From Haplodiscus bocki (taxonomy: Eukaryota), in NCBI GenBank assembly GCA_965655095.1, contig OZ296651.1:62310001-62374000 (forward strand): DNA of 64,000 nt, in the 5' to 3' direction. Below the pieces are notes generated by a model. That model did no database searches, was not told the origin of the DNA, and worked only from the letters and a program-made list of their open reading frames with translations. Made by a program: the position numbers and the translations under genes. Shown one piece after another: positions 1 to 25,114 of the stretch (its first letter is position 1; every line of letters begins with the position of its first letter).

Positions 1-2504
1 AACATTTAAACAGGGCACAGCTGGAGCCGCAACAGTAGCACGTTCCGCTTCAGCTGAGAAAACCTTTGCCCCCATCGCTGCTACCCCAAACCCTCTCCCA
101 AGTAGAAACCAATCCCGCAGTAACAAAAACCGATACGGCCGCCGTAATAGATCCCGATATGTAGACCCCCAAACTTGGAATAAAATGTGTAAAGACGTTG
201 AACCCGGTGGCTTCTTTCCTCAAAACGAACCTCAAACGCCACATGATCCTCCCCAAACGTTCATAAGCGAGCAACCTTGACTTGAAGTACCTATAACCCG
301 TGAATTGGAGCCCCAAACGGCAAAAATTTTGCGCAAAAATGACCCCGTCATTTTTGAAGTAAAGTGCACCGATAAAAGATGTAGAGACAAGGAATCAGAA
401 GCTGTAGCTTCTGGAGAAATTGTGAGAGGTAGCGGAATGTGGGTACCTGCCCAAGTAGAAAACCAGCTCTGCTGGGCGATTCTAGATACCGGCGCCAGTA
501 GAAGTTTAATGAGCCGCAGCCTGACCTCGGAGATAGGAAATCCTATCCTCCCGTACAACTGCAATCTTTTTGGACCAATAGGGAACGTGATACCCATTGA
601 CGGAATTATGCGCGCGGAAAATAGGCCCACATGCAACCTCGGACGAGTTTATCGTAGTTGACCAGTTGTACCCCCAGCTGTTAATTGGATTGAAATTTAT
701 GACTGAAAATGGCTGCCAAATGGAATTAGCCAGTAAACAATTCCTAATCAGAGATTCCGACAGTGAACCCACTGCAGTCGGTGTGCACATAGGCGATCGC
801 TATGAGCATCCAGCGGATGATCAAGCCTACATGATCCAAACAGTAAAAAATACAGAAAACCTAGAAAAGGATGACTTAAATGCTGAAATCGAAAACGACG
901 TAGATGAAATAATGCAACTCGCAGCGAGCGAACTGCAAAATGCCGAAATAAAACAAAAACTGAGAAAGCTAGTCAAACAGTACCGCGATGTTTTTGCGCT
1001 AGCAAGGGGCCCCTTCGGAACTGCAGTCGGGACCGAGCACTGAATTGAGACGAAAGACGCCGTGCCAATGAAAAAGGCCCCATTTAAAATTGCGCCTCAT
1101 AAACTTCCCGCCAACCGAGCTGAAATACAGGAGATGTTAGAAAAAGGCGTTATCGTACCAAGTAAAAACCCGTTCAGTAGCCCTGCTGTGATGGTCCCTA
1201 AAAAGGACGGTACGAAGAGAATGTGCATATACTATCGGAACGTTAATGAAATTACTGTGAAAGATGTGTATCCGCTCCCGCGGATCGGCCAGACGATTCA
1301 TGCGCTACAAGGTGCAGGATTCTTCTCATCCTTGGATTTGGCCACGGGATATTGGCAAGTACCGGTAGCCCAGGAAGACCGACATATGACCGCTTTTTGC
1401 ACCCCAGATGGGGGTTTTTTTCGAATTTGTAAAAATGCCGTTCGGACTGACGAACGCTCCCGCCACCTTTCAACGCCATATGAACAATATTTTTGCCGCG
1501 ACCTGTTTCAGCATGTGTTGATTTTCTTATATGACGTACTTACTTACAGCAAAACGCCGAACGATCACCTACATCACCTTGAGAAAGATTTTTTGACCCT
1601 GAGACGTGCTGGCTTGAAACTAAAACCGAAAAAATGTAATCTGTTCCAAACAAATGTGCATTATCTGGGACATGTAATTGACAAAGGCGGGATCAGACCC
1701 AATCCGCAAAAATTAGGTGCCGTTAGCAATTGGGAACGCCCAAAAACAGTCACGCAAGTCCGATCGTTCAGCGCATTCTGTAACTATTATCGGAAATTCG
1801 CCAAAAACCTTGCGGAAGTAACTAAACCTCTCTACGCGCTAACCAGTAAGGCCGTGATGTTCACATGGAGTGAAGACCACGAAGAGGCATTCCAATTGTT
1901 AAAAATGAGACTTTTGCAAGCCCCAATTCTGTCGTTTCCCAACTTTTCCTACCCGTTCGTAATAGACACGGATGCCAGTGAAACTGCTCTTGGAGCAGTT
2001 CTGTCGCAAGTGATCGAAAGAGAAGAGCGACCCGTGGCGTTCGAATCTAGAGTATTGACGAAAACTGAAGTAAACTATGCCACAACGAAACGAGAAGCTC
2101 TAGGAATTGTGCAGGCAGTGCAGTGGTTCAGACCCTATTTCTACGGAACGCAATGTATTGTTAGAACAGATCATGCAAGTTTACAATGGCTGTTCAGACA
2201 GAACGCAGATGGAATGACGTGAAGAATGATCCGGAAAATGCAGGAATATGATTATTGAATCGTACATCGTCCCGGAGAAAAACACAAAAATGCGGATGGT
2301 CTCAGTAGGCGTCCCAATGAAAAACACGAATGGAAAGTAGGCGAAGAGGAAGAACTTAGAGGAATCATCCCGCAATTTGAGACATTTGACATCGCCTTGG
2401 AAGGGGCAGAGAATGATATCAAGAGAAAAACGGGCCAAATTACGGAAAATGAGGAAGTGTTTCGACATGTGAAAGTGCAAGTACCGCATCCGCCAAGAGA
2501 AGTA

Positions 2505-2930
2505 GTTCGCTTTGAGACTGGAATTTTCATGGCGGCGTCGGAATCTTTGATTTTCTGTAATTCCAGGGTTATGCGTGTAAAAATGGAGCCAGTGGCTCAA
2601 GTTGTTGCCATGTATTCACATTTGAGGCCTGGACTCGACTCCGTTAACCGAGTTGGAGGAGTCTTAATTTATTGGGACCCGGAGCGGGAGCGTTACATCT
2701 ACCTCCTTCTCGTAAAAGAAAGATATAGTGATGTAGCAGAGTACGATAGACTAAAAGAATGCTTAGAACGAGTTAGGGAGCACGCGAATGTTAATGGAGT
2801 GTCTCACTTTGCAATGCCGAGGATAGGTTGCGTGGACAATAGACTGGAATGGATCAACGTGGCGATTTGCATCGATTCCATTTTTCAAAACAGTCATTGT
2901 ACAGTGACCGTGTATACGCCGGAGGATGAG
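2505..2930 (+). pseudogene. TARG1/OARD1 (Poa1p-like) macrodomain embedded in Pol between RNase H and integrase
   Basis: RYIYLLLVKERYS..YDRLKECLERVREHANVNGVSHFAMPRIGCVDNRLEWINVAICIDSIF..VTVY aligns without gaps to recalled TARG1 [61 protein letters not shown]..ITVY. Confidence 0.88.
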
Positions 2931-3339
2931 ATAGAAAGTTATCCAGCAGTTAATTTGACCCAAAGACGTGAAGGAAGTACAGCGGATTTTTGTGCCACTG
3001 TTACGCCGGACGAAATGCTTGCCGCTGAAAATGTGACAGAACGGATTTCGTGAACTAAGTCAGATAGCGCATTGGCCGAACAACAAAAATTAGATCCAGG
3101 CATCAGCTGTTTTCTAAATAATTTGAATAGTGGAACATTGAAACTGGACGGAACGTTAGAGTCCTTCGGAAAAAATCCTATTTCCAAAGATGATGCAATG
3201 TCATGGGGAAACCCCGAAGCAGTAGAACTATGGACAAAATGAGAGGAGCTAGCTACGTCCAACGCAGTAATTTTCAAAAGATGGAAGCCGAGTAACCGAG
3301 TAAATGAAGTATGGCAGGCTGTAGTTCCGAAATCTATGC

Positions 3340-4240
3340 GCTAAGAAGTTTCGTATCAATTACATGATGCGCCAACTAGCGGAGGCCATTTCGCGGTAGA
3401 GAAGACCTTAGCCAGAATTAAGCAGAGATTATGGTGGCCTTTCATGAGGTCTAACGTAGAACGGCATATAGCAAATTCCGATCGTTGCGCGGCCCGCTCC
3501 ACAGCATGAAAAAATCGTAGAGCAGAGCTACAATCGACCCAAGTTTTTAATTCGTTTAAAGTAATAGCAGCGGACATTTTAGGTCCTGTGACTTAGGCCT
3601 CGAAGTCCAAAGCGAAATACATCTTAGTAATCTCGGATCTGTACACGAAGCATGTAGTAACTGTACCTTTAAAAGACATGACGGCCGCCACTGTAGCTAA
3701 TGCGATGTGGAAGAGTGGATAATGAGATACGGCGCACCGGATGTATTACATACAGATCAAGGTACTAAATTCAACAGTGATTTGATGCAGGATATTTGCC
3801 GCCTGTTCATGATTGATAAAACAAGAACCACTCCATATCATATCCAAGGGAATGGGCAAGTAGAACGATTTAACAGGGTAATTGCAGACACAATTTCCAA
3901 ACATTGCGCGGAAAAACCGCACTTGTGGGACACGTACTTGCCAAAAGTCACGTTTGTTTATAACACGACGGTCCATCGAACGATAATGGAAAAGAACAAC
4001 GCAGACAGCGTGATTTTTTCACTAGAAAAGTACATGGCGATCCATTTAAACCAGGTGACTTAGTCTGGTTATTTGAGCCCCATAGAGCAAAGTCGCGGAA
4101 ACTCTATTTACCGTGGCAAGGCCCTTACGAAGTGCTGAATAGGACCAGTGAAGTGACGTACAAAATTTGCCAGAGAGGTCGGCCAGAAAAATGGACAAGG
4201 GTCCTTTTCAATCGATTAAAACCGTACATAGGCGAACCTG
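3340..4240 (+). pseudogene. Integrase region (HHCC zinc finger, DDE core, GPY/F module)
   Basis: LHDAPTSGGHFAVEKT..WWPFM..DRC; IAADILGP; LHTDQGTKF; YHIQGNGQVERFNR; WQGPYEV near 4115-4135. Frameshift near 3705 and an apparent internal deletion near 3985. Confidence 0.93.
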
Positions 4241-5057
4241 AAGTACGTCGTTCGAAAAGAAACGCTGCGAGACCGACGCCGCTGTATGAGGAAACTCCAG
4301 GCTAGAGTGATGAGTCAGACAGAGAAATCCAAGACCGCCCCTTCCATGTTTTCAGCGAGACCTCGACCGAAAGATAAGCAAATTGTAATAGACCGCGCGT
4401 TACTTTCGAAAAATTACCAGTCGTAATAGAGGAAAGCCAAAGTGAGAATGACCACCGAATGATTAGTCACCCGTACGAAGAAGTATCCCCTAGACAACCT
4501 TCCCCTCCGATAGCGACATATGAACAAATCGACGGAAACGACAGTGATTATGAAATACCCGACCGTTGTAGCCCCCGAGTTCCCTTGGAGAACGCTAGAG
4601 AGAAGCCAGAGACTTTAGCGATACCTGATGTTGACGAATCGAACTCCAATGTGCCAGCCGGCAGATCCCGACGTCCGCCTATTCGCTTTGGAATAGACGA
4701 GTACGTCAGCAGCAAATCAAAATAAATTCCCGACTACGGTCGACTGTCTTGCGAGCGAAGTCGTCCAACCTTAACATGCTCGCTGAACGCGAATATTTTC
4801 TTTTTTTATTTCTTCTCTTTTTTTCCTTTTTTGCGTTCCAATTAGTCATAACGTCATCATCTATAAAATAAAACACGATTGTTTCTGAATCACATTCCTG
4901 AGTCATAAGTACGCTTACTCATAATCGACGTTATAGATTCGGTTTTCACTTATCATTCTCCAAGCAACTCTCTTATAACTCAGTCGTAAGTGCTGTGCGC
5001 GTTGCAGTGAGAAAATTAATTAACGCCTATACTTCAAAATTTCCGGAACCCAACAAA

Positions 5058-7276
5058 ATGCAGAGTTTACCCAAGTTCAACTTTTACTTGCTATCGTTAA
5101 TATTAGCAGTTGCATCCGAGGACGACGATTTCGATAGGTGGGCTTTTCAAAGACAACAGGGCGCCCAACAATTTGTAAACGGGTCTCACTCGATCTCAGG
5201 AGCCGCGTTCACGTCGGAATCCCCAGTCGTGTTAGTGAAAGCAATTAAAACTATCTGGACGTATATTCCGTTTCCCCCGTTACCCCGGTTAGACCCAAAA
5301 CCGTTGAATTCTATTCTAGAAGACGCTTTCCGACGGCTAACCGACCTAGATGTGAGAATTTTCTCAAAAGAATGCGCAGATGCGCAGTTGTTTACTTATT
5401 GGAAACAGTTGCTTGAAGACAGTTTGGCAGAGGTTTTTCACAGTCAAAAAATGTTTGAGGTGGATCTGCAAGGTATGAAAAGAGCGATGATGGTTTTCCT
5501 TCACCATACTATTGACGACATTCCGCTAGAAAGTCCGAACAGATATCGCCGAAGCATCATCGGAGCTGTAGTAGGGTCAGTAATAGGAAGCGAATTATCT
5601 AGAGTCTTCGTTCAACCCCTGACACGGCCGTTAGTGGACAAGTTTTCATGCTTCGTGGATAAGTTGGTGCCGTTCGGCTTGATATGCCAAAATGACCGAC
5701 GCAAAGCGATTGAAAAGTTATCCCAAGAAGTCGAATTTTTGGAGGATCAAGTATTTTTGCTGAAAACACGCTTACTAGAAGCCATTATGGTCAAAATGCC
5801 GGCAGATGTAATAAATCGGAAGTTAGCTAGGCTGGGAGATACCTTAGAAGAGAATGTGCGAATGTTATATAATTCCATAAACACCGCTGTACAAGAAGTC
5901 ACGGATTTTGTTGAGAAAGGAGAATGCGCGGTTCGCTACATCCAAGACCGACATAGAAATACTCTAATCATCGCCGCCAATTTTCAAAATTTATCAACGC
6001 AGTGTCGAAGAATTATTAACGACATAAACTTGAGAAGAATTTCGTTAGCTAATATGGCTGCAACGATGCAGGATGCAATGTCGTCGCTTGTACACGGTTA
6101 CCTTCCAGTTTCGCTCATACCACCGGCTACGCTGAAGGAGATATTAAACAATTTGAATTCTTTGGTCTGAACGAGGCGATCCCGCGGATGTTAATAGCGG
6201 CCTATTTTACGTTTGAGGTGGTTAGGGACGCGTATGTATCCGATGAGGGGTTGCATTTGTTATCAGAAATCCCCTTAAACTCGGGACATGGGGTACATGA
6301 AGTTCTTAGAGCCACCCCAATTCCCCAGCCAATCTCGAACACTGAACAAGCCACCCAGTATCAACTTAACAAGACGCACCTCCTAATGTCCTGGGACAAG
6401 ACCAATTTCGCTGAGGTAACAGAGCAAGAACATTCCAAACACTGCTGGGGCTCCCACTGCATAAGACTCTGCAAACAGCCATTTTCCACCACCCGATCGC
6501 AGAAAACCACTTGTCTCACGGGGTTTTCCTTCAACCTCCCTGCTAATGAACTAAAACTATGCGCACAAGAAGTGATAGCTCTCCCACAAAACCCACAAGC
6601 CCTCTATCTTTACGACTCTACCTATTTGTTGACGTCCGCCAAAGGAGATTTTGTAATTCAGAACGTCACAGCTTCGGGAGACCTCAAAATTAATGGGTGC
6701 CAAAGTTGCCTCGTTCGACCAACGTGTGATGAACGGCTACAATTGCCGAATGCGGGGTTATTCTTGATACCCGATCCACTTTCATGTTTGACGGAGAGTA
6801 GTAAAGTTGTTCGTATCCTCTCAACCTCCTTTTTACGATCTTTATTTGACAAACTAAAAAAATTTGAAGAATTTGTTGCTCCCGAATTGATGGGAGATAT
6901 TCATCTGAAGTTACTAATGCATTTGAAATTGAATTATGCTGGATTGCCAGACCGTTCCGTCACAGACGAAATGCTTGAGTTGATTGCGCCGCCATTTCTG
7001 CAAGAGTTGAAGACAGTACAAACAACCCTCATCAGGAAAGTGTGGTGTGATGTCATGCTGCCTTATGTGTCTACACGTTTGATGTTGGTACTGGCTGCAG
7101 CTGTAACATGGGCGCTCAGGAGAGGAAAAATTGTATGCAGTCCGCCGATTCATCGAGGGAACACAAAGAGACGAAGGCGCCGCTGTGCCCCTGGCAGACG
7201 TAGTAGCATAAGCAACAAAAGAAGGCGATGTATCGCAGCCCCTAGCAAAGACGACCCCTGGGAAAGCAGCTGCTAA
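5058..7276 (+). pseudogene. env: env-like class I fusion glycoprotein (errantivirus/baculovirus-F-like architecture), one frameshift near 6165
   Basis: Signal peptide MQSLPKFNFYLLSLILAVA; furin site RYRR (5541-5552) followed by fusion peptide SIIGAVVGSVIG; heptad-repeat segments; GYLPVSLIPPATLKEIL; Cys-rich region; C-terminal hydrophobic LMLVLAAAVTWAL plus basic tail. Confidence 0.85.
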
Positions 7277-7780
7277 AATAACAGCTAAGTAAAAAAAGGG
7301 AACTTAAAACATTTTGCTCTTTCCTGGAGACCTATTGTCAAAACACATAAAAAAAATATTAATGTATACATATAATCGTAAGAGAAAAAAACTAGTTATC
7401 AAAGTGCTTTAAAACCCCACCTGTACTTATTTGCCTAGATAAGCTTTTGATAAACATCCCCACCCGCATTTATCTGCAGCTGTATTGTTGATTTTGTTAA
7501 GCTTCATCCCCACTTGGATGCATGTTGATGTTTATGAATAACGTACTGCCGCAGGTGATATGTTCTGCAGGTGATATTTTATTTGTTTGAAAATTGAATT
7601 ACGAGGAGAAATAAATAAATAAGAATATAAGATTACTAAGATTAGCGAAAAACGAAAGAAGACGGACATCTCATCAGTTATCAAATTTTGTTGCTAAGAA
7701 TCAGTCGCTCCCATCTACAACAATTAGAAGAACAATTTCAGACCTGCTCTTATGCCGAAATTATTAAACGAAAAAAAAAT

Positions 7781-8623
7781 ATGTTACCTTTTGTCCCAAC
7801 CGCGCAGACAAGACCTAGAAACTTTGAATCTATGAGGTCCAGCACAGTTTATAACCCGGCACCGTATGAAGTCCTCGGAGCAAATATGCCGGAGACAGCT
7901 GGATTCTCACCGCTAACTATCAGAGTTGGGAAACCCTTGAGCTCATATAAACTTAACAAGATTGAAAGTACAAGGCCAAATTCGGACTATGTCTACTTCC
8001 ACCTCGAGAAATATTGCGCACTGGACGGCCTGTGGTATCCTCAGTGGCTGCAGTTGAATATTTACTGAGAAATGTTTAGAGAAAATTTGTTGGCCGTATT
8101 CAAGGCATCATTAGAACGGCCAGAGCGCACAAATTTCCTTTTAACGCTCGCCAGATATTTGGCCCTCAAAGACGACGCACCACAAGCCGCGAGAAATCCA
8201 AGGAGCACCCGTTACCACTGGCGAGGGCCTATGCATACCGCAATTTGGGCGGAACTACAGCGAGAAGTACCGGGGGCCGAACACTATCAAGTATACCCCC
8301 AGCCTCCCCGACGACCCTGTGTGGACGTTAGTCAATTTCAGAGGGTAATGTTGGCCTATATTTCAAGCAGTGCGGCGACTTCCTCTATCACTACACCCGC
8401 CGCTAGCACATTTACCGCGTCTACCAGGGGAAGAAACCGAGAATTTGATTGCGATGAGGTGAGCCAAACCGAAACAGAAATATCAGTCAATGTTGACAGC
8501 GACACCGACAGTGTCGACACCACTGCAGCAGTCGTCTTCACGCCGGCAGCGAAATTAATTAAAAGGCTCGCCGCAAACAAGGAAGAAACGGATGGCGCAG
8601 GCCCTTTGACGTCACATAATTAG
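7781..8623 (+). pseudogene. ORF3, unknown accessory protein (~280 codons, one in-frame TGA at 8066-8068)
   Basis: ORFs 7688..8068 and 8072..8623 share a frame and are separated by one stop; ATG at 7781; coding-like composition; S/T/D-rich tail. Confidence 0.65.
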
Positions 8624-8754
8624 AACGTAAAAGAGATGGGAGACGTAAAAAGGTGAAGTCTGTAAGCACGAACATTCACTTATGGCTATTAAAATTATTT
8701 ATCCTTGTAATAGACAAAACCCTCTCCTCATACTACTCAGGAGAGTAGTAGTCC

Positions 8755-8767
8755 AAGTGGGGGGGAA
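8755..8767 (+). other. Polypurine tract
   Basis: aagtgggggggaa immediately followed by TGTGG, downstream of the last sense ORF. Confidence 0.8.
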
Positions 8768-8927
8768 TGTGGAAAATATACTACAATTTTTTTGTTTTTG
8801 TTATTTTGTGTTTAATATTTTTTTTCTTTTTTTCGCATTATTGATGAAGGAATTACTCTTAAAGTTAAATAAATACTAACTCGAAGAGGTTGAAGAGCTA
8901 AAATTAAGACCGTTGAATAATTATTAC

Positions 8928-10016
8928 TTAAGAAGAAGGCCCTAGACCAATAGCGTCCTTACGCGTATAACCTAGCTCAGAGGACTGTAAAGGGGGGACG
9001 CGATTACTTTTAAATTTACGGGCAACCGCTTCTTCAATGTGTAAGGATGATAATAAACGAGGAGACTGCTGTTCCCAATAATTCCAGTGTTTTTGTAGCT
9101 TTTCCTTACTTTCCTTGGGGCCTGTAGGAGGAGAAAACACCCACTCGCGTAGTGCTGAAAGACCTTTTGTACGGAAAATTTCGCGCCACTCACCACGGCG
9201 CACACCAAAAGTATACCCATACAGCGTTTGAAGGATGACGTGCTGATTCGACGTAGTAGCGGCGTCCCATCCGGATAAAATTGTTGGTGAACCTGTGTCC
9301 AATGTTAAAACGGCGTGAGCAAGAAGGTGCGGAATATAAATCAAACCGCCGGGACGCTGGATAGTAAATTGTAAATAACGTGCCTCACGTTCACGTGGGC
9401 CGTGCTGCATCAATTGTATAAAACCTTCGGAAGAGTGGCAGCAACGTTCAAACAGGCGAGTACCGGAGGAGGAAGAAGAAGTGCACCAAATTTTGACTCC
9501 TTTGTTTAATAAAGCGAAAGAAGCGCCGCCGCCGACTTCCGTATGAGCGTAAGTGAACCACGGTCCGTTCATTAATAATCCCATGCAACTAGTAACAATT
9601 TGATCAAGGAAACATTACGGGGATAAACAGTGGCTGAAGTTCATATCGGCTTGGATAGAATTTATAAATTGACGTGTAACGACATAGTGGGGACCTTTGG
9701 TAATGCCGGTTAAGGGGTGTGAGGGAATAATATTTACATGGTTCCAAGTTAAATTAGGACGGTCACAGAACAGCTTTAAAACACTCTTAGGCTTTACTTT
9801 AACACCAGACAAGATACACGGGACAAGTGGGGAATTAACAGTAAAATCAAAACGGGGCCAATTTTCATTAATAAGGGAATCTTCAATGTTGACGGGATTA
9901 ATAGGCATAGGGCCAAAAAGGCTTTTCATAAGCTCTAAAACAATTAAACTACGCGTTTCAAAGTCGGAATATTAGCAGAGTTCACGTTTACAATCCAAAT
10001 CATTCATATTTGCCAT
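8928..10016 (-). pseudogene. JmjC-domain 2OG/Fe(II) dioxygenase (KDM2/7- or JMJD6-like motifs), ~362 codons with two in-frame TAA and no frameshift
   Basis: ATG at 10016 is in frame with ORFs 9615..9929 and 8928..9584. Motifs FTYAHTEVGGGASFALLNKGVKIW (H-x-E at 9545-9537, 2OG-binding Lys) and IQRPGGLIYIPHLLAHAVLTLD (distal His at 9317-9315). Confidence 0.9.
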
Positions 10017-10169
10017 TTTTGCAATTATGATTTTGCTGTGTTAAAGCACGTGAAATGAGTGAAATTTAGCAGTGAGAATGATACCCGGAAAGTGAATATT
10101 GAACTGAATAAGCACTACGTTGGAATGTGAACAAGCAGCGGAACAACTATTAGTTATTTTGGAACGACC

Positions 10170-10275
10170 TTGTCACGTGTATTAACATAGCAAAGCAACA
10201 GCAGCATGAAATTTAAAAAGTGGTTTATTTCGAGCCCTAACTTTAACGTCCATTTTCTCGAAGACTATTATAGAT
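10170..10275 (-). promoter_or_regulatory. Candidate antisense promoter of the JmjC gene (TATA-like box and E-box)
   Basis: GACTATTATAGAT (minus strand TATAATA, 10263-10275) and CACGTG (10174-10179) are both retained in the diverged copy (22503-22515; 22414-22419). Confidence 0.4.
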
Positions 10276-12299
10276 AGAACAGAACAGTTTTCACCAATAG
10301 AAACTGCATTCCAAAAGAAACAAGTTCGAGGATTTTCACTGCATTCTGAAAGTAGAAAGTTGTCGAAAGATTAAAACGAATATTATTACGGTCAGGAAAA
10401 TGGTACAATCGTGCATTCACAGTTCAGTTGCAACTTTAGAAGCGCATAAAAGTGAGAGGGGAGTGGAACCAAATTGTTGTAAATACAAAAGGAAGACAAT
10501 AGTAGTGATTTTGGAGTGATTCTTGACCACGAGCACGGCCACCAACACCCCACGTATTAGCATATTTACGCTCTCGCTGCTCAAAATTAGAGCTGTTTTT
10601 TTAATCTTCCCCAATGTTTGCTTGCTTATTTCTCAAAGATGAAAAAAGATATCGACAAACGGTTTAAACCATTGTAAACTACATCCATATGAAAACTTAG
10701 GTTTGGAATATGAGCAAAATCAGACGAATTTAAGATATTGAAAATTTGTAGCAAACGAAAAGTGTACCCCAGAAATTGGTGAAATGAGTGCAGTTAAAAA
10801 TTTATTCTGAGCGAACCACGCATCAGAAGAGGCTCGCATTAGTCTTAAACGGAAGATATTTAGATGGACTAATGTCTCTGAAAAGATGAATCGATTATAT
10901 TCAGTTATTTTGGAGAACGGAGGAAGAAATGGCCAAAAAACGCCCAAAAAAGTCTAAAATCGTCAAAAATCACAGATTTCTCTTATTAGTTAACCAATAG
11001 CCAATAGAAATCAACAATTTTACTATACTAACGATTGAAAGCTTGTTATTAGAAGGACTGGAGAATAACAATAGAACAAGCATAGCAAGCTGCAATTGGG
11101 CGCCCCACAAAATTACAACTAGCTAAAAACACGGATTTTGGAAAATGTCGACTTGCAAAACGGCTACACCCCCGCACCTTTTTGAAGATAGAAAGGTGAA
11201 AAATTAACATATTGCTCCTAAAAACCTCCCCTAACAAAACTCCCAGGGATTTGTCGAAAATTTGCCTGTACGTTGAGAAAATCGACTTTGAAGGTGGACC
11301 TAGGTAGTCAAAAATGGCCAAAATCGGTACTTTTGCGGAGAATTGAATAACTTTTTTTTGAGACCAGCTAGAGAGCTCATCTTTTCATCAAAATACTCCC
11401 CTTCAAAAGTAAAAACACGAAAATGCCACCCCCGCCCTGGAAAAAAATACACGTTGAGAAAAAGGACCTCAAAATGACCAAAAATCAATATTTCGGATAT
11501 GGAATTTCGGCTACTTTCAGACAATCGCATTTTTCGACCATGAATATTGAAAGTAACTAGAACAAAGTATACATTGCCAGAAATTACCTTTAAAACCGCG
11601 TGTAATGTTGTGCTTTTTTTATTTCTATGACAATTATGACAAACACAATTAATTGTTGAAATTTGGAAAAAATTTACGACTTTCTTCTGACATTTATTTT
11701 TGCATGGATGTTATGACGGCAATTGTTAAGGAAGATATTTTATTCGCCTATTTTGGAAGCACTTGACCCGGGAAGACGATTAGCATAGCTGACACATCAA
11801 CCGAAAGAACGTGTCAATCAAAAACGTGACACTTACCAATAAAAAGCAAATGATGAAAGAACAGTCACTTGACTTTATTACAGAATATTAGTGGTGACGA
11901 CCACCAACTACCTAGTCTTCATCTGAAACTGGACATATTATTGATACCAAAACAGGCCGAAAATAATTTACTATTACCGAAAGCCAGCGAAAGTGGCTAA
12001 AAGAGAAATTTCCATTAGTAATAACTGACGAAAAAGAACGAAAGTAATGATTTCAAGAAACGACGAAACCGGGACACCCCCTAGCGGCAAAAGGAGAGGG
12101 AAAAGCGCCAAATTCGAAAAAACAGCCTAAAGAAAAGTGCAAAACAAGAGTGAGTTGAACTGTGGGACAGTTGCTACTTTAGTGGAGCCGGAAAATCTTG
12201 TCTTTAACTTAGTCCGGGACTAACGTTAGAGATATCTCGACAATCCGGGATTGTGAAACATTTTTAGCGATTCGAAACTGTTTGCTTGTGGTCTGGGAC

Positions 12300-12365
12300 C
12301 ATAAATACCAGCTTTGTGGTCGATCAGAGCTGTCAAGTCCGTGTGCGATCGGATTTGGAATAAAG
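12300..12365 (+). promoter_or_regulatory. Candidate LTR TATA-like box and polyadenylation signal
   Basis: cATAAATAcc at 12300-12309 and AATAAA at 12359-12364. Confidence 0.4.
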
Positions 12366-15300
12366 AGAGCGAGAGTGGTTGAAAGTTATTCTGTGTTTCG
12401 GCAACAGTGTTGGTGTGCGATCCAATACTGATCTCGAGTTGAAAATCTAGAACCGTACAGAGAACGGCGTGCGAGAGTACCGCGATTCGCGGTAGCGCCT
12501 CGAAACGATTTCTAATTACGCCATTTGAGCGTGCATCAGCTTCAATCTCTTCGAGATTTCCTTTAATTAATTGTCATATTCGCTGAGTGTGCTATTATAG
12601 TGATTGTTCGATATCTACCCTGATCCTACTATTACTCGGCAACCTAATAACTGTAACGTATTACATTGTACTACCACGAAGTATTTAAACCTAATTATTC
12701 ACTTCTTAACGTATTTACCCAATTGAAAAACGAAATTTCCTTCAAAGATTCAATTGAAAACCTTCTTTGTTGCGAAATATTGTTTTCATCCCTTCTCAAT
12801 CAAGCAAGAGCCTCAGAAAACAGCAACGAGACAACCTGTTGAGCGATCGTTCAGAAATCAAAGTGTTAGGCATATATTTTGCAAAAGACCGCCACCACCC
12901 TCAAGTCACAAATTCGCTTGTGTACATTAAGGTTATAAATTTTTGTGGATCTCAGCCGTGCTCCCCGTCTCGTGGGCAACGGTACTACGGTTTAATTGAG
13001 TTAGAGCCGAAAACTTCGGTTCGAAAGCTTTTATCAATATTCTACAAATTTTTTCAAAAATGCTTCGCTATGTATGCCGAACAAACCAAGTCGAATTTTT
13101 TCACTGAGATGCTGCCATTATTCCAAGAAGATATCAATATCGTGCCAAGAAACGCTAACAAGTCGCTATCTCGAGAAAAATGAAAGAAACATCTGGATTG
13201 GTATTGACGAGGCGCCAGTGATTCATCCTATATGTTTGGGAAGAAACGTCGAAGAAAAATGGCAAGCAACTTGTTGAAGATTGTAATGCTGATAACTTGT
13301 TTCAAATTTAAACTGGTCTCAAAATAGAGACTTTTCGCAAAAAACAATTAGGAGGCTCTGATGGTTCGGGAAGGTTTGAATTTATCCACAAAAGTCAATA
13401 TCGAAAGGTATCTTCCCATTTTTTTACTCAAAAATCTAATCTAATTGGCGTAAATATGGAGGATTTCGTAGGTAGTTAGAGTATCTCAGCAAACAAAATC
13501 ATCGATTGCAAATTCTGTTTTTTCAGTGGAAAGTTCGTTAAAAAGGTGAAAAAGGTGATGTTTCAGTTAGCGAGCTTTTCGCTTTTAATTTTCTGGCAAA
13601 TTATCCCGACAGAGCTCCATTGAAGTTTGACTGGTAGAAATTGCGGGTATTCATTGTCATAAAGCAAAGCGTCGCGAAATTTACCTCGGAATGCCAGTAA
13701 CTCCGCCCATTTCTTAGGAAAGAACTAACTAGTTTAATAAATTTTATATAACGTAGTCCGAAAGTCAATTCGGCAGACCTTTTCTTGGAGAAAATCAATA
13801 AGAAATACACAGTTCTGTGGAATTTACTTTTAGTTGACGCAGTATCTTCGCTCCACATTGATAACAACTGCAATTGATGTTTAGAGAGCGGAAACTGTGA
13901 AATTTATGTCTTAATTCTGCTGTAAGTAAGTTCCTCGAACAAACTAATTTCATTGAAGACAAAAAATTCCACCTGCTTCAAAATCAAATTAGTTCTTTTG
14001 TTCAACAACTTTGTAGGAAGGTATTTCCAAAATCTGTAGACTAGATTGAGATGTGAGCCTCCATAGAGTTGACATTTTGAGTTGAGAAAAGTAAATGAAA
14101 ATATCGGCACCTATCAGTGGCAACAAGGTTTCTAGAAAAGCTGTTTTTTCCATGAAACGCCGATAACTACCAGTATTTTTTATGATATAAGGGACAAATT
14201 CCTGTTTTTTGGTGGCCTGTACGCCTTCATCATTGAAAAATTTAGGAGAAAGTTGTCACATGATTTAAATATGAGTAAACCAAAAATGACTTCCAATGAC
14301 AAACCAAAGCAATGAGGGAATTAATTCAGAAACATCGCATCATGAAAACGCATAAACATTTCTCAGAACTTCGAGACTTTTCCAAACTTTCCTGGTTCTC
14401 TTTTTCAGACTTTTAGATTAGATTTTTTTTGTAATTCTGTCTGCGAGACAGGGTGTTAATACACTGTTATTGTTTCCATCTGTTTGGTGGCTCCATCCTT
14501 TTCTCGAGATGTCATAGTTGCACTTCCACAATTCTCGTGTCGAACCTTATACATCTTGGCTCTGTGAGATATCGTCGTTTTATTACTGGTTTTTCGTCAG
14601 AGAATCAGCAAGAAACAGCAACTTGTGAGAACTGCATTTAATTACGAAACGAATCGGTTTTGTCGAAAATGGGAGTGGATTATGCGTGGACGCAACCTTT
14701 TATTAAGATTCGTCTCTCCTTTTGATCTTCATTTTTGTTTTCCCCCCCCCCCTTTGTTTTGTGTTGCAAACTGGGTCAACAAGTTAGCGCGACCGGATCA
14801 CCAAAAAACGAGGTTATTTATTTTGGGTTTCATTTTCGACACCAGCAATAAGCTTTGATATTTGAAAAAATTACATTTCTGGTTTCAACTCGTGTCGGTG
14901 GGACTTTTTTCAAGGTTTTTTCAGAAGAATTTGGATAGTGAATGTGTCGCTAGATAACTTTATACAGAGAAACCAACAGTCGAAAAAAACACTAGAAAAT
15001 ATGGAGAATGATTATAATTTGCTTAAATACGTATAAAAACTAATATCATGAGAACTTACGTTAAAATTTAACTGAGCTGAAATGATGTTAAGTTAATCAT
15101 TTTGTAGTCTAACATGGACTACTTCGGGACAACGCTAACTAATGAATGAGCTTGAGTAGAGATCTAAATGTGTTTAGTTTTTACGTACGTCAACACTATT
15201 TAACCAAATCGGTAAAATGGGACTTCTAGTGAACATTAAACATAGTGTTTTGTTTTTCCCTTGGAGAAAAATCTAAAAGGGCAGTGTTCTATTGTAGTAC

Positions 15301-20549: not shown

Positions 20550-23500
20550 ACTATTGATTCATTACTTTTGGTTGTTTTGTTGCATTCTTTTGATTTGTAT
20601 TTTAACTTTATTATATCTATTTACGATTTCCAATCTACATGATTTTCAAACGAATGAGAATTACCAGCACAAAAGTCAACTTAGCCAATTGAAGGAGACT
20701 CTAAACCATTCTGTCATTGACAACAATACCAATAAAAGTGCAATAGGAGACGAGACCTTAGAACCTTAAACCAACAACCGTTCTAATAACTTAGGCAGGA
20801 TTGTAGTTGGCGAAACAGTGTAGGTCAAAATCAATTCATTTAAAACAATTTTGACGACAACTTTAGAAACGTCGTCGATGGAGCCGTTATGGTTGTCGAA
20901 AATCGAATGCATGATGCGAGTTGAGATGGCTGTGAGATTAATCACCGAGTCATCAGGAGGGGGACCCAACAATGTGGTTCACAACTCTAATTGCAAGGAT
21001 TTTACGGCAAACACTGAAAACACCTCGCTCATGTTGACCTCTAGCCAAATGGATTCAAACGTTGATCAAGCTGGAATTGATGAGACTCGTAATGTCGAAA
21101 ACTTCGTGGATTTTGATTTTCCGGCATTAAGTCCGAGTTATGAACGGCGAGCTTACGCTCATCACAGGTTGAGTCTGATGGCGTCGAACCAAAATCCTTT
21201 GCCTGAAAAGGAGGCAGGTGATTTATTTCTTTTGTTAGTGGCATGCCCCTCGATAACTAACGTGTTTTTCAAATCCGGAATAAGTTAGTCCCATTATTTC
21301 CAATATTTTTACAACCCTTTTTCTTACTTTCTTCTGGGCCTGTTGCAGGAGAGAACGCCCACTGCCATAAGGGTGATGAACAAATTTTTGCGGAAATTTT
21401 CGCGCCACTTACCACAACGCACACAGAAAAAATACTCATCCAATGTTCCCATAGTAATTTGCCGATTTGAAGTAGTAACGGCGCCCTGTCTTGATAAAAT
21501 TGTTGGCGGACCGGTATTCAAAGTTAAAACTACATGAGCGAAAATATGTGGAATGAAAAACAAAGCGCCGGGAAGTTGAATAATAAAAAGTTGAAACCGC
21601 GCCACACATTCCCTCCGGCCGCGCTGTGTTAAATTTACAGAACCTTCAGGATAATGGCAGCATTATTCAAAGACGCTTGTACCGGTAAATGAAGTAGAGG
21701 CTCCCCAAACTTTTATGCCTTTGTTCAATAAAGCAAAAGAAGCGCCACAACCGATATCTGTAAAATGGAAAGTGAACCATGGGCCTTTTATCAAAAATTC
21801 TAAGCAATCAGTAAAACCGTGGCTCTTGAAACAAAATGAGAATGAACAATGGCGGAAGTCCATATCCGTTGCGATAGAATTTGAGAAGATACGGGTAAAA
21901 GTATAGTTAGGACTTTTGGTAATTTTGGTTAGGGGGTTGAGATGCCAAAAAGTACATCTTCACAAGTTGAAACAGGATGGTCACAAAACAGTTGTAATAC
22001 ACCTGAACGTTTTACATTAACAGCATTAAACCAGGTACACTGGACAAAGGAGAATTTACAGTAGAATTCACATCGCAAAAAAAATTGAAACGGGGCCAAA
22101 AGTCATTAATATTTGAATGATTGATTGCTAGTTCTGACGGATTTAACAGGGACAGGATTCAAAATGTTTTCGGTGAGCTCCAAAACCTTCAAAGTACGTG
22201 TGTCAAAAGTAGAAGAATAAGAAAGTTCATTTTGTTTCCAAATCAATTAGATTTGCCTTTTTGCAAGACTAAACTTGCTGCGTTAGCTCGCGTGATTGTT
22301 GTGAACTTGAGTAGTCAAAATAACAAATAAAATTGAAAAATGAACTGAATAAACACTATATTTGAACAGAAGCAAGCAGGGCATCACGTTTTAGTTTGTT
22401 GCACTGACCCTGGCACGTGTGTTGACATAGCAAAGCTGCCAGGGCTTAAAGTATAATTTTATTTCTCATTTGAAGTCAAACTTTAACGTTGTTTTTCCAA
22501 GCGACTATTATAGATGAAGGAAAGAAGTTTCCATCAATGAAAAATAAGATTCAAGAAAAACATGTTGGGAGAGTTTCTTTGCGATCGAAGAATTAGAAAA
22601 TGTCGTGAAATTTTAACGAATTTTTTGAAGGTCCGGAAACAGTTAAAATGTGAATTCTATGTTCAGTTGCAATAGCGTGAAAGTGAAAGCGGAGTGGAAA
22701 CAATATGTTATAAATACAAAAAAAATTTATAGGACAAAATTTGGAAAGAATGTTGACCAGGCGCGCAGCGGCCACCACCACTCGTATAAGCAAATTTACG
22801 CTGCCGTGTCCCAACAGTACAGTTTTTTTTCAAATCGATCCTAAAGTTTGCATCGAAAGTTTTGGAAGATGAAAAAATATCGAAAAAGGTTTTGATGGTT
22901 CAGAATTGCATCCAAAGGAAAAGTTATGTCTGGAAAATGAGTGAAATCGGACTAAAAAGAGATTGTAAAAAACGTTTGTGAACGAAATGCGAAGTGAAAT
23001 GAATAAACCACGCAACAATAAAGGTCAAAAATGTCCCAAACGGAAGATTTTTGAATAAACTAACGTGCGTGAAAAGATTATTTTGATTACCTTTATGCAT
23101 TTTAAGAAACGAGGCAAGAAGTTGCCAAAGAACCCACCAAATCGCCAGAAATCGCAGTTTTTCTCCGATCAGTCAAAAACGTCGCCAATAGATACTCTCC
23201 GGAGTACGACTAAATACTTTGGCATAAAAAGGTTTAGAACGAGTGTATCAAGTTCCACGTGTGTGCCACGCTTTTTTTGAATTAGCAAGTTTCTTGGAGA
23301 CTGGAAATTCGACTTGCAAAACTGCTAGCCCTCGTCCACCTTTTTGAAAATACCAAGCTCAGAACTCACTAAAAAGTTCCTATCAACATTCGCCAAGAAA
23401 CTTACCCAAATTTTTTCGAATTTTTGCCTGTATGTGAAAAAATTGACTTTGAATTTGGACCTAAGTGGTCAGTTGTGACCAAAATTGCTACTTTTGGAAA

Positions 23501-24890
23501 AAAGTTGATTAGCTTTTCCCTGAGACCATTCTCAGAGGTTGGCCTTCCTCTAAATTACTACCTGTAAAATTTACTAACATATGTTCGTTCCAGTTTTAGA
23601 AAGTTTCTATATTCGGAGAAAGATGACATCAAAATGACTAAGAGTTGACTTTACAGTTTCGAAATTTTGACTACTTTGAAAAAGTTGCATTTTTCGAACA
23701 TACAAAATGAGAATAAGTATAGGAAAGCCATTTTGCTAAACACTACATCAAAAACGGCATGTAATGGTCTGCTTATTTCGTAACTTCGGTTTTTATGATT
23801 GACACATCATTATTTTTGAACTTTTGGACAACTTTTGCACCTGTCTTGGGACATTTGTTTTTGCATGGAAATTTCGATAAAAGTAGTTAGCACTGGCTTG
23901 ATTTTTGTTGATTTTGGGACGAGTCAATTGCGCATAACGAATAAAAAGCTAACGCCTCAACCGAAAAAAACTTGTCATTCAGAAAAACGAAATAATTTAT
24001 TGGAAACGAAGACGATTTTTCTTCGTCGTTTTCAAACACCCCTGTTGTGCCAGTGGAAAGGACCGAAATTAATTATTCATAGCTGATGTAGGCCACAAAA
24101 ATCAACACCGAGTAGTTGGCAAAATGATGATTTTGAGGCCGAAGTGGATTAAACGACATTACCAGCCAAAAATTGATAAGTCAACTAAAAAATACTGGAT
24201 ACGATTAACCCGATGAACAATGGCAAGTTCGAAAATAGCCCAAGCTTAAAAGAAAACGACAGGTCAAACTCCAAAGAGCGTACCTAAAAGAAGGGGAGTT
24301 GTAATGCTGGGCAGTCGCTATTTTGGTTGAAGCGGCTTTTTTTTCAGCTGAGTCCCGGATGGTTGTAAGGAAATCTATTTTTGACAATTATATTGCAATT
24401 GTTTTTTTTGAGCAGTCCGGAACTGTTGATTTTGAGTAGTTTGTTAGATTAGGAATCTATTGATGATAGTTATTCAGTTTAGTTATGAATTGAATTGCGG
24501 TTCTGGTGAGCAAGCTAATTCGATTGATATCGAAAGGAGTTTTTCTGACTATCAAGGCAAAGTATTTATTGTTTCCCTTCAGAGTGAAGGTTTCTATTAT
24601 TTGAACCGTCGTTAAGGTACTTATTGGAAGTATTTCTTCAGTATTTTTTGGAAAACAGTTCTATAACGACACCGTTCCCTATACTGTTAACTTGTGTTAC
24701 TTTATTTTTACTGTAATTACTCACCAATATATGGGACCTTTGACTATTGTAAAAAAGATTTCCGGAAACATATAATAAAACCCGATAAACAGCAAAAAAC
24801 CTGAAAGTACTAAACAAGCTCCAAAAATCTTCAAAAATAATATCTCCTGAAAAACTTTATTCTTTAAAACATTGAAAAATGTCACCTTCT
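20550..24890 (+). mobile_element. Diverged second copy of the JmjC-containing LTR sequence (solo-LTR-like)
   Basis: Collinear homology: 21290~9072, 22342~10101, 22503~10263, 23441~11280, 23947~11787, 24310~12168, up to ~24430~12283. Outer boundaries are guesses. No gag/pol adjacent. Confidence 0.75.
21190..22262 (-). pseudogene. Decayed JmjC paralog
   Basis: KGPWFTFHFTDIGCGASFALLNKGIKVW and IIQLPGALFFIPHIFAHVVLTLNTGPPTILS match copy 1; multiple frameshifts. Confidence 0.9.
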
Positions 24891-25114
24891 AATTTTAAGT
24901 CCCAGCCAGGCGCCCCTAACCGTAATTTCAACCTTCAGAATCAACTCAAAAAACTGAAAAAAACATCAAAGTCACGTTGAGTTTTTACTCTCCTGGAATT
25001 TGTACACCCGTTTAGTACGGTATTTTCGCTGCATAAAATAGTGCTTCCGTTTTTGAACCATTTGCATACTCTTAAGATTACCCTTAAAAAATTTGTTTCA
25101 GTTAAGTTTTTTTA

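Follow-up and report, generated by a model that had tools for sequence, protein, structure and literature searches.

The window analysed here, 64,000 nucleotides of the Haplodiscus bocki genome (positions 62,310,001–62,374,000 of contig OZ296651.1, referred to as G000:C4, in a 1.5-Gb assembly; positions are counted from the window start unless a contig is named), holds the 3′ part of an 18.4-kb env-bearing Ty3/gypsy retrotransposon, whose long terminal repeat (LTR) carries on the opposite strand an open reading frame (ORF) for a predicted JmjC-type oxygenase. The 3′ LTR spans 8768..13046 (+ strand, 4,279 bp, TG...CA ends), directly follows a polypurine tract (PPT) at 8755..8767 (+) and is itself followed by a 5-bp target-site duplication (TSD) at 13047..13051 (+) with one mismatch against the left copy. 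The JmjC-fold ORF occupies 8928..10016 on the minus strand, with its ATG at 10016 and its stop codon at 8928–8930, 160 bp inside the LTR start; open copies of it need no intron. The codons of the predicted metal and 2-oxoglutarate (2OG) motifs lie within 9315..9545 (−), namely His 9543–9545, Glu 9537–9539, Lys 9492–9494 and His 9315–9317, and are aligned with JMJD6 H187/D189/K204/H273. A first-pass annotation of this DNA had read the PPT, the TG at 8768, the position of the JmjC stop codon and an intact H-T-E...H triad with its 2OG lysine, all of which are borne out by the coordinates. Its LTR of ~4 kb at 8768..12744 began in the right place and stopped short, the true end lying 302 bp further on.

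The 5′ LTR is located upstream of the window (G000:C4:62304633-62308887), is 92.5% identical to its partner (248 mismatches and 74 gaps over 4304 columns), also contains the antisense JmjC ORF and is followed by a primer-binding site (PBS) complementary to tRNA-Asn, as checked against the host tRNA genes. Two direct LTRs with TG...CA ends, a PBS, a PPT and a TSD, together with gag followed by pol in the order protease, reverse transcriptase (RT), RNase H, integrase, identify the element as a Ty3/gypsy LTR retrotransposon. The upstream partner, its JmjC gene and the PBS are as the first-pass annotation had expected, and so is the TSD, except for the mismatch in this copy; perfect 5-bp TSDs were seen in five other insertions read, one of which is a solo LTR. 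A short 5′ LTR without JmjC is rejected, as the upstream LTR is full-size and contains the gene. Situated at the 5′ end of the LTR, the gene passes into both LTRs with every round of reverse transcription and is left behind in solo LTRs, giving two copies per provirus and one per solo LTR, in agreement with the earlier proposal. Since the initial 1.25 kb of the LTR are taken up by the ORF, a location in U3 is very likely. A TATA-like word (12300) and an AATAAA (12359), together spanning 12300..12364 (+), are present here as had been claimed, but are not conserved across sister LTRs, and the U3/R boundary is therefore a presumptive one. The ORF of this copy is interrupted by stops at 9972–9974 and 9615–9617, both of which align with stops in the 5′ LTR; the template RNA was therefore already broken before insertion.

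A genome search with a naturally open copy of the gene (P0001, 359 aa, used as search query only) yielded 113 scored matches, of which 94 are free of stops; these are the best-scoring copies and hence biased towards open frames. A degenerate pattern of the active site had 675 matches genome-wide (control, 0), and of 20 such loci, hand-picked among the first 100 in the list and for the most part not examined before, one was open. The genome thus holds at least 94 open copies, and most of the others are decayed. An LTR start, preceded by a PPT or by unrelated flank, adjoins each of the 70 JmjC loci tested (L018-L087, a few of them represented twice). Family A, to which the element of this window belongs, divides into subfamilies A1 (this window) and A2. 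Family B is only 35% identical to it in JmjC, 47–53% in Pol, 41% in Env and 33% in Gag; its LTRs measure 3.27 kb, with LTR pairs 99.7–99.8% identical, and have the antisense JmjC in the same place, with the same gene order and PBS. A nested mobile insertion, which would have its own termini and TSD or occur outside LTRs, was considered and rejected: the gene lies inside an LTR at 70 of 70 loci and has the same layout in the very divergent family B, so that the first-pass placement of the gene as a part of the LTR holds.

A third, more distant gypsy lineage, family C (L128-L133, L136-L137; e.g. G000:C10:56.30-56.32 Mb; Pol ~25% identical), with 118 matches of which many are decayed, has a more remote antisense JmjC gene. 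This gene, of the H-x-D type, is located between pol and env and faces env head-to-head over a distance of ~2 kb. LTR-like repeats of 0.4–0.5 kb were present in four of four family C elements compared. The family C profile matches the A/B profile with a probability of 89% (E 2e-6), and this profile–profile match shows the A/B and C genes to be homologous, which does not imply a single capture. JmjC is thus found in at least three retrotransposon families of this genome and in two positions, which points to repeated gain or long retention. Homologue searches at a near-length setting, i.e. among proteins of similar length, returned database relatives at two levels of identity, 57–61%, in clusters with 54 and 67 members, and 36%; the best match in this genome is at 59% and 36%. 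These relatives lack a close match here, and the gene therefore exists in other genomes. No relative was found in scans of viral contigs, nor in scans of metagenomes save for one 33-residue match in a GC-rich contig, taken as chance.

The coding capacity of the ORF has been maintained by selection. In a sample of 46 open copies among 58 examined, the ratio of nonsynonymous to synonymous substitution rates (dN/dS) is 0.64 for near-identical pairs and declines to 0.145 over 480 A1–A2 pairs (dS ~0.7); shifted frames give values of 1.1–4.0 and the strand-mirror frame 0.27, as expected. Between subfamilies of family C, the proportion of synonymous differences (pS) is 0.73–0.86 versus 0.22–0.37 for nonsynonymous ones (pN). 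We conclude from these substitution patterns that the JmjC ORF is under purifying selection.

Upstream of the JmjC start lies a non-coding block of 1.8 kb (10018..11817, no strand assigned), which may function as a promoter block. Younger copies of A1 and A2 are ~91–96% identical in this block, 88–90% in the 5′ half of JmjC, 74% in its 3′ half and ~57% at the LTR ends. JmjC dS between the subfamilies is 0.5–0.7, except in one short segment, and the upstream block keeps its high identity despite synonymous sites in gag, pol and env being near or at saturation; this identity gradient therefore suggests repeated recombination, by which the JmjC cassette would have been exchanged between subfamilies. 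Further to that, a ~54-nt motif (81% identical) upstream of the JmjC start is common to A and B, the LTRs of which are otherwise unalignable, and represents a candidate promoter element (window ~10270-10315 on the minus strand, L016:3107-3160 and L088:4438-4491; two occurrences in A2).

Selection on the gene does not make it indispensable to the element that carries it. Stops common to both LTRs were seen in three of five pairs tested, and two A1 elements (L151/L153/L180, G000:C6:46.916-46.932 Mb, and L154/L155, G000:C12:40.067-40.082 Mb) are without the JmjC ORF in both LTRs owing to the same clean ~1.16-kb deletion, with ORF4, the frame between env and the PPT, also gone. The LTR pair of L154/L155 is 99.1% identical. 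Another element, L012/L013, has no ORF4 but has kept JmjC. The deletion variants were found from split genome matches, a pattern search for JmjC-deletion junctions having given no match. The shared stops and the JmjC-less elements mean that the gene is not needed in cis; since broken and JmjC-deleted elements still transposed, it is either accessory or acting in trans. The first-pass annotation had missed that this copy was broken before insertion, that JmjC-less derivatives transpose and that a related gene lies between pol and env elsewhere.

The identity of the product was approached through profiles, folds and motifs. Single sequences do not reach significance against Pfam JmjC (E 0.046–0.12; best 19.4 bits, below the curated cut-off of 24), while 10 of 16 alignment members match it, with a best E of 0.0005. 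JmjC clusters were returned by the Atlas search at 0.96–0.97. Both AlphaFold models are of low confidence (mean pLDDT 41.5 and 45.8), so that active-site geometry and subfamily are not readable from them; with such a model, all 40 rows listed by Foldseek were JmjC oxygenases (best E 7e-4), and the top 20 rows of the VIA fold search were JmjC/2OG oxygenases (Z 4.3–5.7, root-mean-square deviation (rmsd) 4.2–6.8), AlkB-type chains coming lower (Z 3.6–3.8). Fold searches of the low-confidence models and the Atlas thus agree on a double-stranded beta-helix (DSBH), and both models have a helical region after the barrel. A search of viral structures gave no match at E 0.001 or better, a PDB search with a single sequence gave only chance antibody matches, the family C profile found no JmjC in the PDB, and an NCBIfam scan of five proteins gave no match. 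A hydrophobic segment is missing from the protein (the 19-residue Kyte-Doolittle mean peaks at 1.6), and its C-terminal part carries basic patches, a combination that may indicate a nuclear location.

The catalytic residues are well kept. Of the iron triad, His is present in 113 and Glu in 117 of 120 relatives and the distal His in 101 among those aligned there, and the triad is retained in families B and C. The 2OG-binding Lys, aligned with JMJD6 K204, is found in 111 of 120; a basic strand-4 residue binds 2OG across the JmjC superfamily, according to Iyer 2010 (PMC2938197). All four residues (H, E, K, H) are conserved in families A and B and in the 57–61% and 36% relatives outside this genome, and in the profile alignment to JMJD6 the H, acidic, K and H positions line up. 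By motifs, Atlas and fold, we therefore predict the activity of a JmjC-type oxygenase, one that no named subfamily can be shown to include.

Within the superfamily, the motifs lean to the KDM2/7, JMJD6 or JMJD4 type. A His-to-Lys spacing of 17 and T/S at His-3 are common to the ORF and to host KDM7, JMJD6 and JMJD4. The distal His is followed by H-x-x-x-T in families A and B and H-x-x-x-S in family C; KDM7A and PHF8 read HAVLT, and Table 1 of Iyer 2010 (PMC2938197) gives ‘HxxT instead of HxxxN’ for the JHDM1/KDM2/PHF family. The H-x-E of the ORF is as in host KDM4/5/6. Each attempted assignment failed: for KDM2/KDM7/PHF, the H-x-D and aromatic strand-3 residue (Tyr) of host KDM7 are replaced by H-x-E and Ala in A and B; the strand-3 Asn and H-x-x-x-N of JMJD6/JMJD4 (same table) are absent; and of the KDM4/KDM5 features (H-x-E, strand-3 Asn, spacing 18, JmjN plus partner domains) only H-x-E is found, with the lowest second-block scores. 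A genome-wide search for the JHD domain (PF17811) found host KDM7 only. The presence of host KDM4/5/6/7, JMJD4 and JMJD6 genes, together with the type of element, suggests an animal genome.

The remainder of the element within the window (1-8767) consists of broken pol, env-like and ORF4 frames. Pol is in pieces at 107..4725 (+), comprising protease, RT, RNase H, a TARG1-like macrodomain and integrase. The macrodomain (window ~2595-2894; L016:9216-9740; L119:340-771) is of the TARG1/OARD1 kind, with two E values to human TARG1, 2e-15 and 5e-23, from families A and C; in family B it was assigned from its resemblance to the domain of family C. It sits between RNase H and integrase in A and B, and after integrase in C; our literature search found no description of a macrodomain in such a Pol. 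The env-like gene, frameshifted into two frames at 4902..7276 (+), bears a tentative resemblance to F-type fusion proteins: Atlas look-alikes of a 787-aa ORF at 0.91–0.93 include Fusion_gly and Baculo_F clusters, at a low recognition score and with no Pfam match. ORF4, in two pieces at 7766..8623 (+), has no Pfam or NCBIfam match, although families A and B show weak conservation in it, with 23% identity over 101 aa at E 2e-6 (also L017:4651-5577 and L088:6649-7239). At another locus (L006, G000:C7:23.28 Mb), a PBS and internal sequence directly follow the 3′ LTR, which suggests tandem elements with a common LTR. Genes for tRNA-Asn, corresponding to the primer type of families A and B, occur as a large tandem array with ~410 bp spacing at G000:C4:38.77-38.89 Mb (L138).

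Further along the window lies a second, older LTR-like relic of the same group (21191..24555, +), which is 68% identical and in which the antisense JmjC (21192-22234) has decayed. The relic and its surroundings (20916-25054) have an inverted, 79% identical copy ~45 kb away (G000:C4:62282032-62286178). From 31600 to 64000 the window consists of long AT-rich tandem arrays, with a ~970-bp unit (31.6–35.5 kb) and a related ~4.17-kb unit (46–64 kb), neighbouring units being mostly 85–98% alike.

These observations are best explained if JmjC is an accessory gene long resident in one clade of Ty3/gypsy retrotransposons with env. We put the probability that it is a selected, trans-acting accessory gene for a JmjC-fold protein at roughly 90%. 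It would be transcribed from an antisense promoter of its own within the ~2-kb conserved upstream block, head-to-head with the sense promoter, and its protein would act in trans, a minority of open copies serving the whole family. The enzyme may oxidatively strip a repressive methyl-lysine mark in a KDM2/KDM7-like manner, allowing the elements to escape chromatin silencing; we hold such methyl-lysine demethylation in the service of counter-silencing to be somewhat short of an even chance. In its favour are the H-x-x-x-T motif, the His-to-Lys spacing of 17 with T/S at His-3, the helical region after the barrel in both models and the basic C-terminal patches of a protein without hydrophobic segment. 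The TARG1-like macrodomain in Pol would then be a second eraser of host-added marks, and fits a theme of reversing them, which proves nothing on the JmjC substrate.

A number of observations weigh against the demethylase role, and several of them speak for a protein hydroxylase of the JMJD6/JMJD4/JMJD5 kind, acting not on chromatin marks but on Lys or Arg residues, either in a host factor for defence, splicing or translation or in the element’s own Gag or ribonucleoprotein. The fold search ranks no demethylase above the hydroxylases, with DPY-21, TYW5, JMJD5, FIH and JMJD3 all at Z 5.2–5.7 and rmsd 4.3–6.8, so that TYW5, JMJD5 and FIH tie at the top. JMJD6 is the best solved-structure sequence match of the family profiles and the sole JmjC protein among them, at a non-significant E of 0.06–0.22, and the first named Atlas cluster is JMJD4 (0.93). 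No PHD, CxxC or other reader domain and no JHD is matched by Pfam in the ORF, where a spliced upstream exon is possible. Where the demethylase clade has its strand-3 Asn, 116 of 119 aligned relatives have Ala (host KDM7 has Tyr), and the strand-8 Asn is replaced by Ser or Gly in families A and B, with no Asn-Phe there. Block scores, by which host JmjC genes were compared as exon pieces and not by a tree, are similarly low for host KDM7, JMJD4, JMJD6 and KDM6 and do not exceed the level between different host subfamilies of the KDM7/JMJD4/JMJD6 group; at scores that low, therefore, no host donor can be named. Finally, JmjC-less elements transposed recently (LTRs 99% identical), and only one of the 20 hand-picked motif loci is open. 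None of the hydroxylase matches, however, is significant or stands clearly above the demethylases, the H-x-x-x-N and strand-3 Asn of JMJD6/JMJD4 are absent, and a JHD-bearing (KDM2/7-type) Atlas cluster scores equally at 0.93. We accordingly regard a hydroxylase as a serious but unlikely alternative.

Base modification on a nucleic-acid substrate, be it element RNA, the tRNA-Asn primer or cDNA, would make the enzyme an analogue of the gypsy-borne 2OG oxygenase of orchids, described as an N6-methyladenosine (m6A) demethylase in vitro in PMC9289625; the tRNA hydroxylase TYW5 among the tied top fold matches and the basic C-terminal patches are in keeping with this. We consider it improbable, given JmjC-type motifs with the strand-4 Lys, the lower rank of AlkB-type chains and a motif layout that follows the KDM2/7–JMJD6 group and not the TYW5/FIH group. 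There is also a slim chance that the protein is a non-catalytic binder, two of the usual 2OG or substrate residues being altered, or that the antisense transcript is itself the functional unit and regulates, for instance, the genomic RNA, as discussed for plant elements in PMC7264820. Against this, all three iron ligands and the 2OG Lys persist across proteins only 35% identical, and selection acts on the amino-acid frame. A mere passenger, i.e. a captured host sequence or nested insertion hitchhiking without function, could be argued from the 19 of 20 broken motif loci and the transposing deletion derivatives. Decay after insertion is, however, normal for all retroelement genes, and a dN/dS of 0.14, the unchanged place and direction of the gene across families whose synonymous divergence is saturated and the absence of any case outside an LTR among 70 loci have already largely refuted this reading, to which we give hardly any credence.

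As to precedents, full-text literature searches, which did not extend to subscription journals, repeat-database entries and bioRxiv supplements, found no JmjC gene in an LTR retrotransposon. The main text of the errantivirus survey by Chary and Hayashi (PMC13524379) contains no macro, oxygenase or antisense, and its seven text supplements no Jmj; word searches of a rotifer extra-ORF paper (PMC5408684), a giant-transposon review (PMC6431247) and a plant extra-ORF review (PMC7264820) gave no such case, and the word ‘transpos’ is absent from Iyer 2010 (PMC2938197). The JmjC gene of these elements is thus apparently undescribed in the literature searched, and falls within the theme of retroelement accessory enzymes. 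Its closest precedents are the AlkB of an orchid gypsy element (PMC9289625) and the viral JmjC genes of LbFV (PMC5381508). The AlkB (2-ODD) ORF of Phalaenopsis Tat/Ogre-like gypsy elements is likewise an extra 2OG-Fe(II) oxygenase, kept over many replication rounds with cofactor residues intact and proposed to counter host marks, but is of the AlkB type, closely resembles host ALKBH5/9B, was captured recently and is active on m6A (PMC9289625). The filamentous virus LbFV similarly is a virus-like genome whose JmjC genes, ORF11 and ORF13, are proposed to manipulate host expression, but these belong to a large DNA virus, nest among wasp homologues and pass Pfam (PMC5381508). The enzyme described here is, in contrast to the orchid one, JmjC-type, without an identifiable host donor, antisense and inside the LTR; unlike in LbFV, it belongs to a retroelement, measures 270–370 aa, stays below the Pfam cut-off and has no donor found.

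Accessory genes tied to the LTR include MMTV sag and HIV nef, which overlap U3, are both in sense orientation and are not known to be enzymes of the JmjC kind, while the antisense gene of HTLV is itself outside the LTR. An antisense promoter in the 3′ LTR of HTLV is mentioned in the plant review (PMC7264820). According to the same source, the plant elements Grande, RIRE2 and Retand have a conserved antisense accessory ORF near the 3′ end with a promoter of its own, one product being nuclear; these ORFs are placed downstream of pol and before the 3′ LTR, and no enzyme fold has been recognised in them, whereas the ORF described here is inside the LTR (A, B) or between pol and env (C). The gag-pol-env organization, LTRs, tRNA PBS, multi-copy young insertions and a tentative F-type env look-alike are shared with errantiviruses with F-type Env, as described in PMC13524379; the TARG1-like macrodomain, ORF4 and LTR-borne JmjC go beyond these. 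The head-to-head JmjC/env arrangement of family C brings to mind Oikopleura Tor elements, which have an internal promoter for env (PMC4402516). Among cellular enzymes, KDM2/KDM7/PHF8, JMJD6 and JMJD4 resemble the ORF in the DSBH fold, the spacing of 17 and T/S at His-3, with H-x-x-x-T as in KDM7/PHF8; the ORF differs in H-x-E instead of H-x-D, the strand-3 Ala, no strand-8 Asn-Phe, no reader domain and no significant sequence match.

The persistence of retroelements against chromatin silencing in animals is a standing question, for which an element-encoded JmjC protein is a direct and testable candidate; a small soluble protein, it lends itself to assays with methylated peptides, RNA and proteins as substrates. 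If it proved to be a hydroxylase, it would still represent a JmjC lineage without an identifiable host donor. The LTR location is unusual in that the gene doubles with each insertion and survives solo-LTR formation, and its dosage is therefore uncoupled from intact elements (675 motif matches). In its fullest form, which we advance tentatively and think rather unlikely, our interpretation is of a clade of animal env-bearing retrotransposons with an old eraser kit, made up of a JmjC demethylase lineage unlike the host subfamilies and an ADP-ribose hydrolase in Pol, with a minority of open LTR-borne cassettes removing repressive chromatin marks in trans for all members, and with the cassette swapped by recombination between otherwise diverged families. 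If true, the literature searched holds no earlier description of an animal retroelement with an enzymatic gene against silencing, and the placement of the gene and its promoter in the LTR would spread expression cassettes through the genome by the hundred, those in solo LTRs among them.

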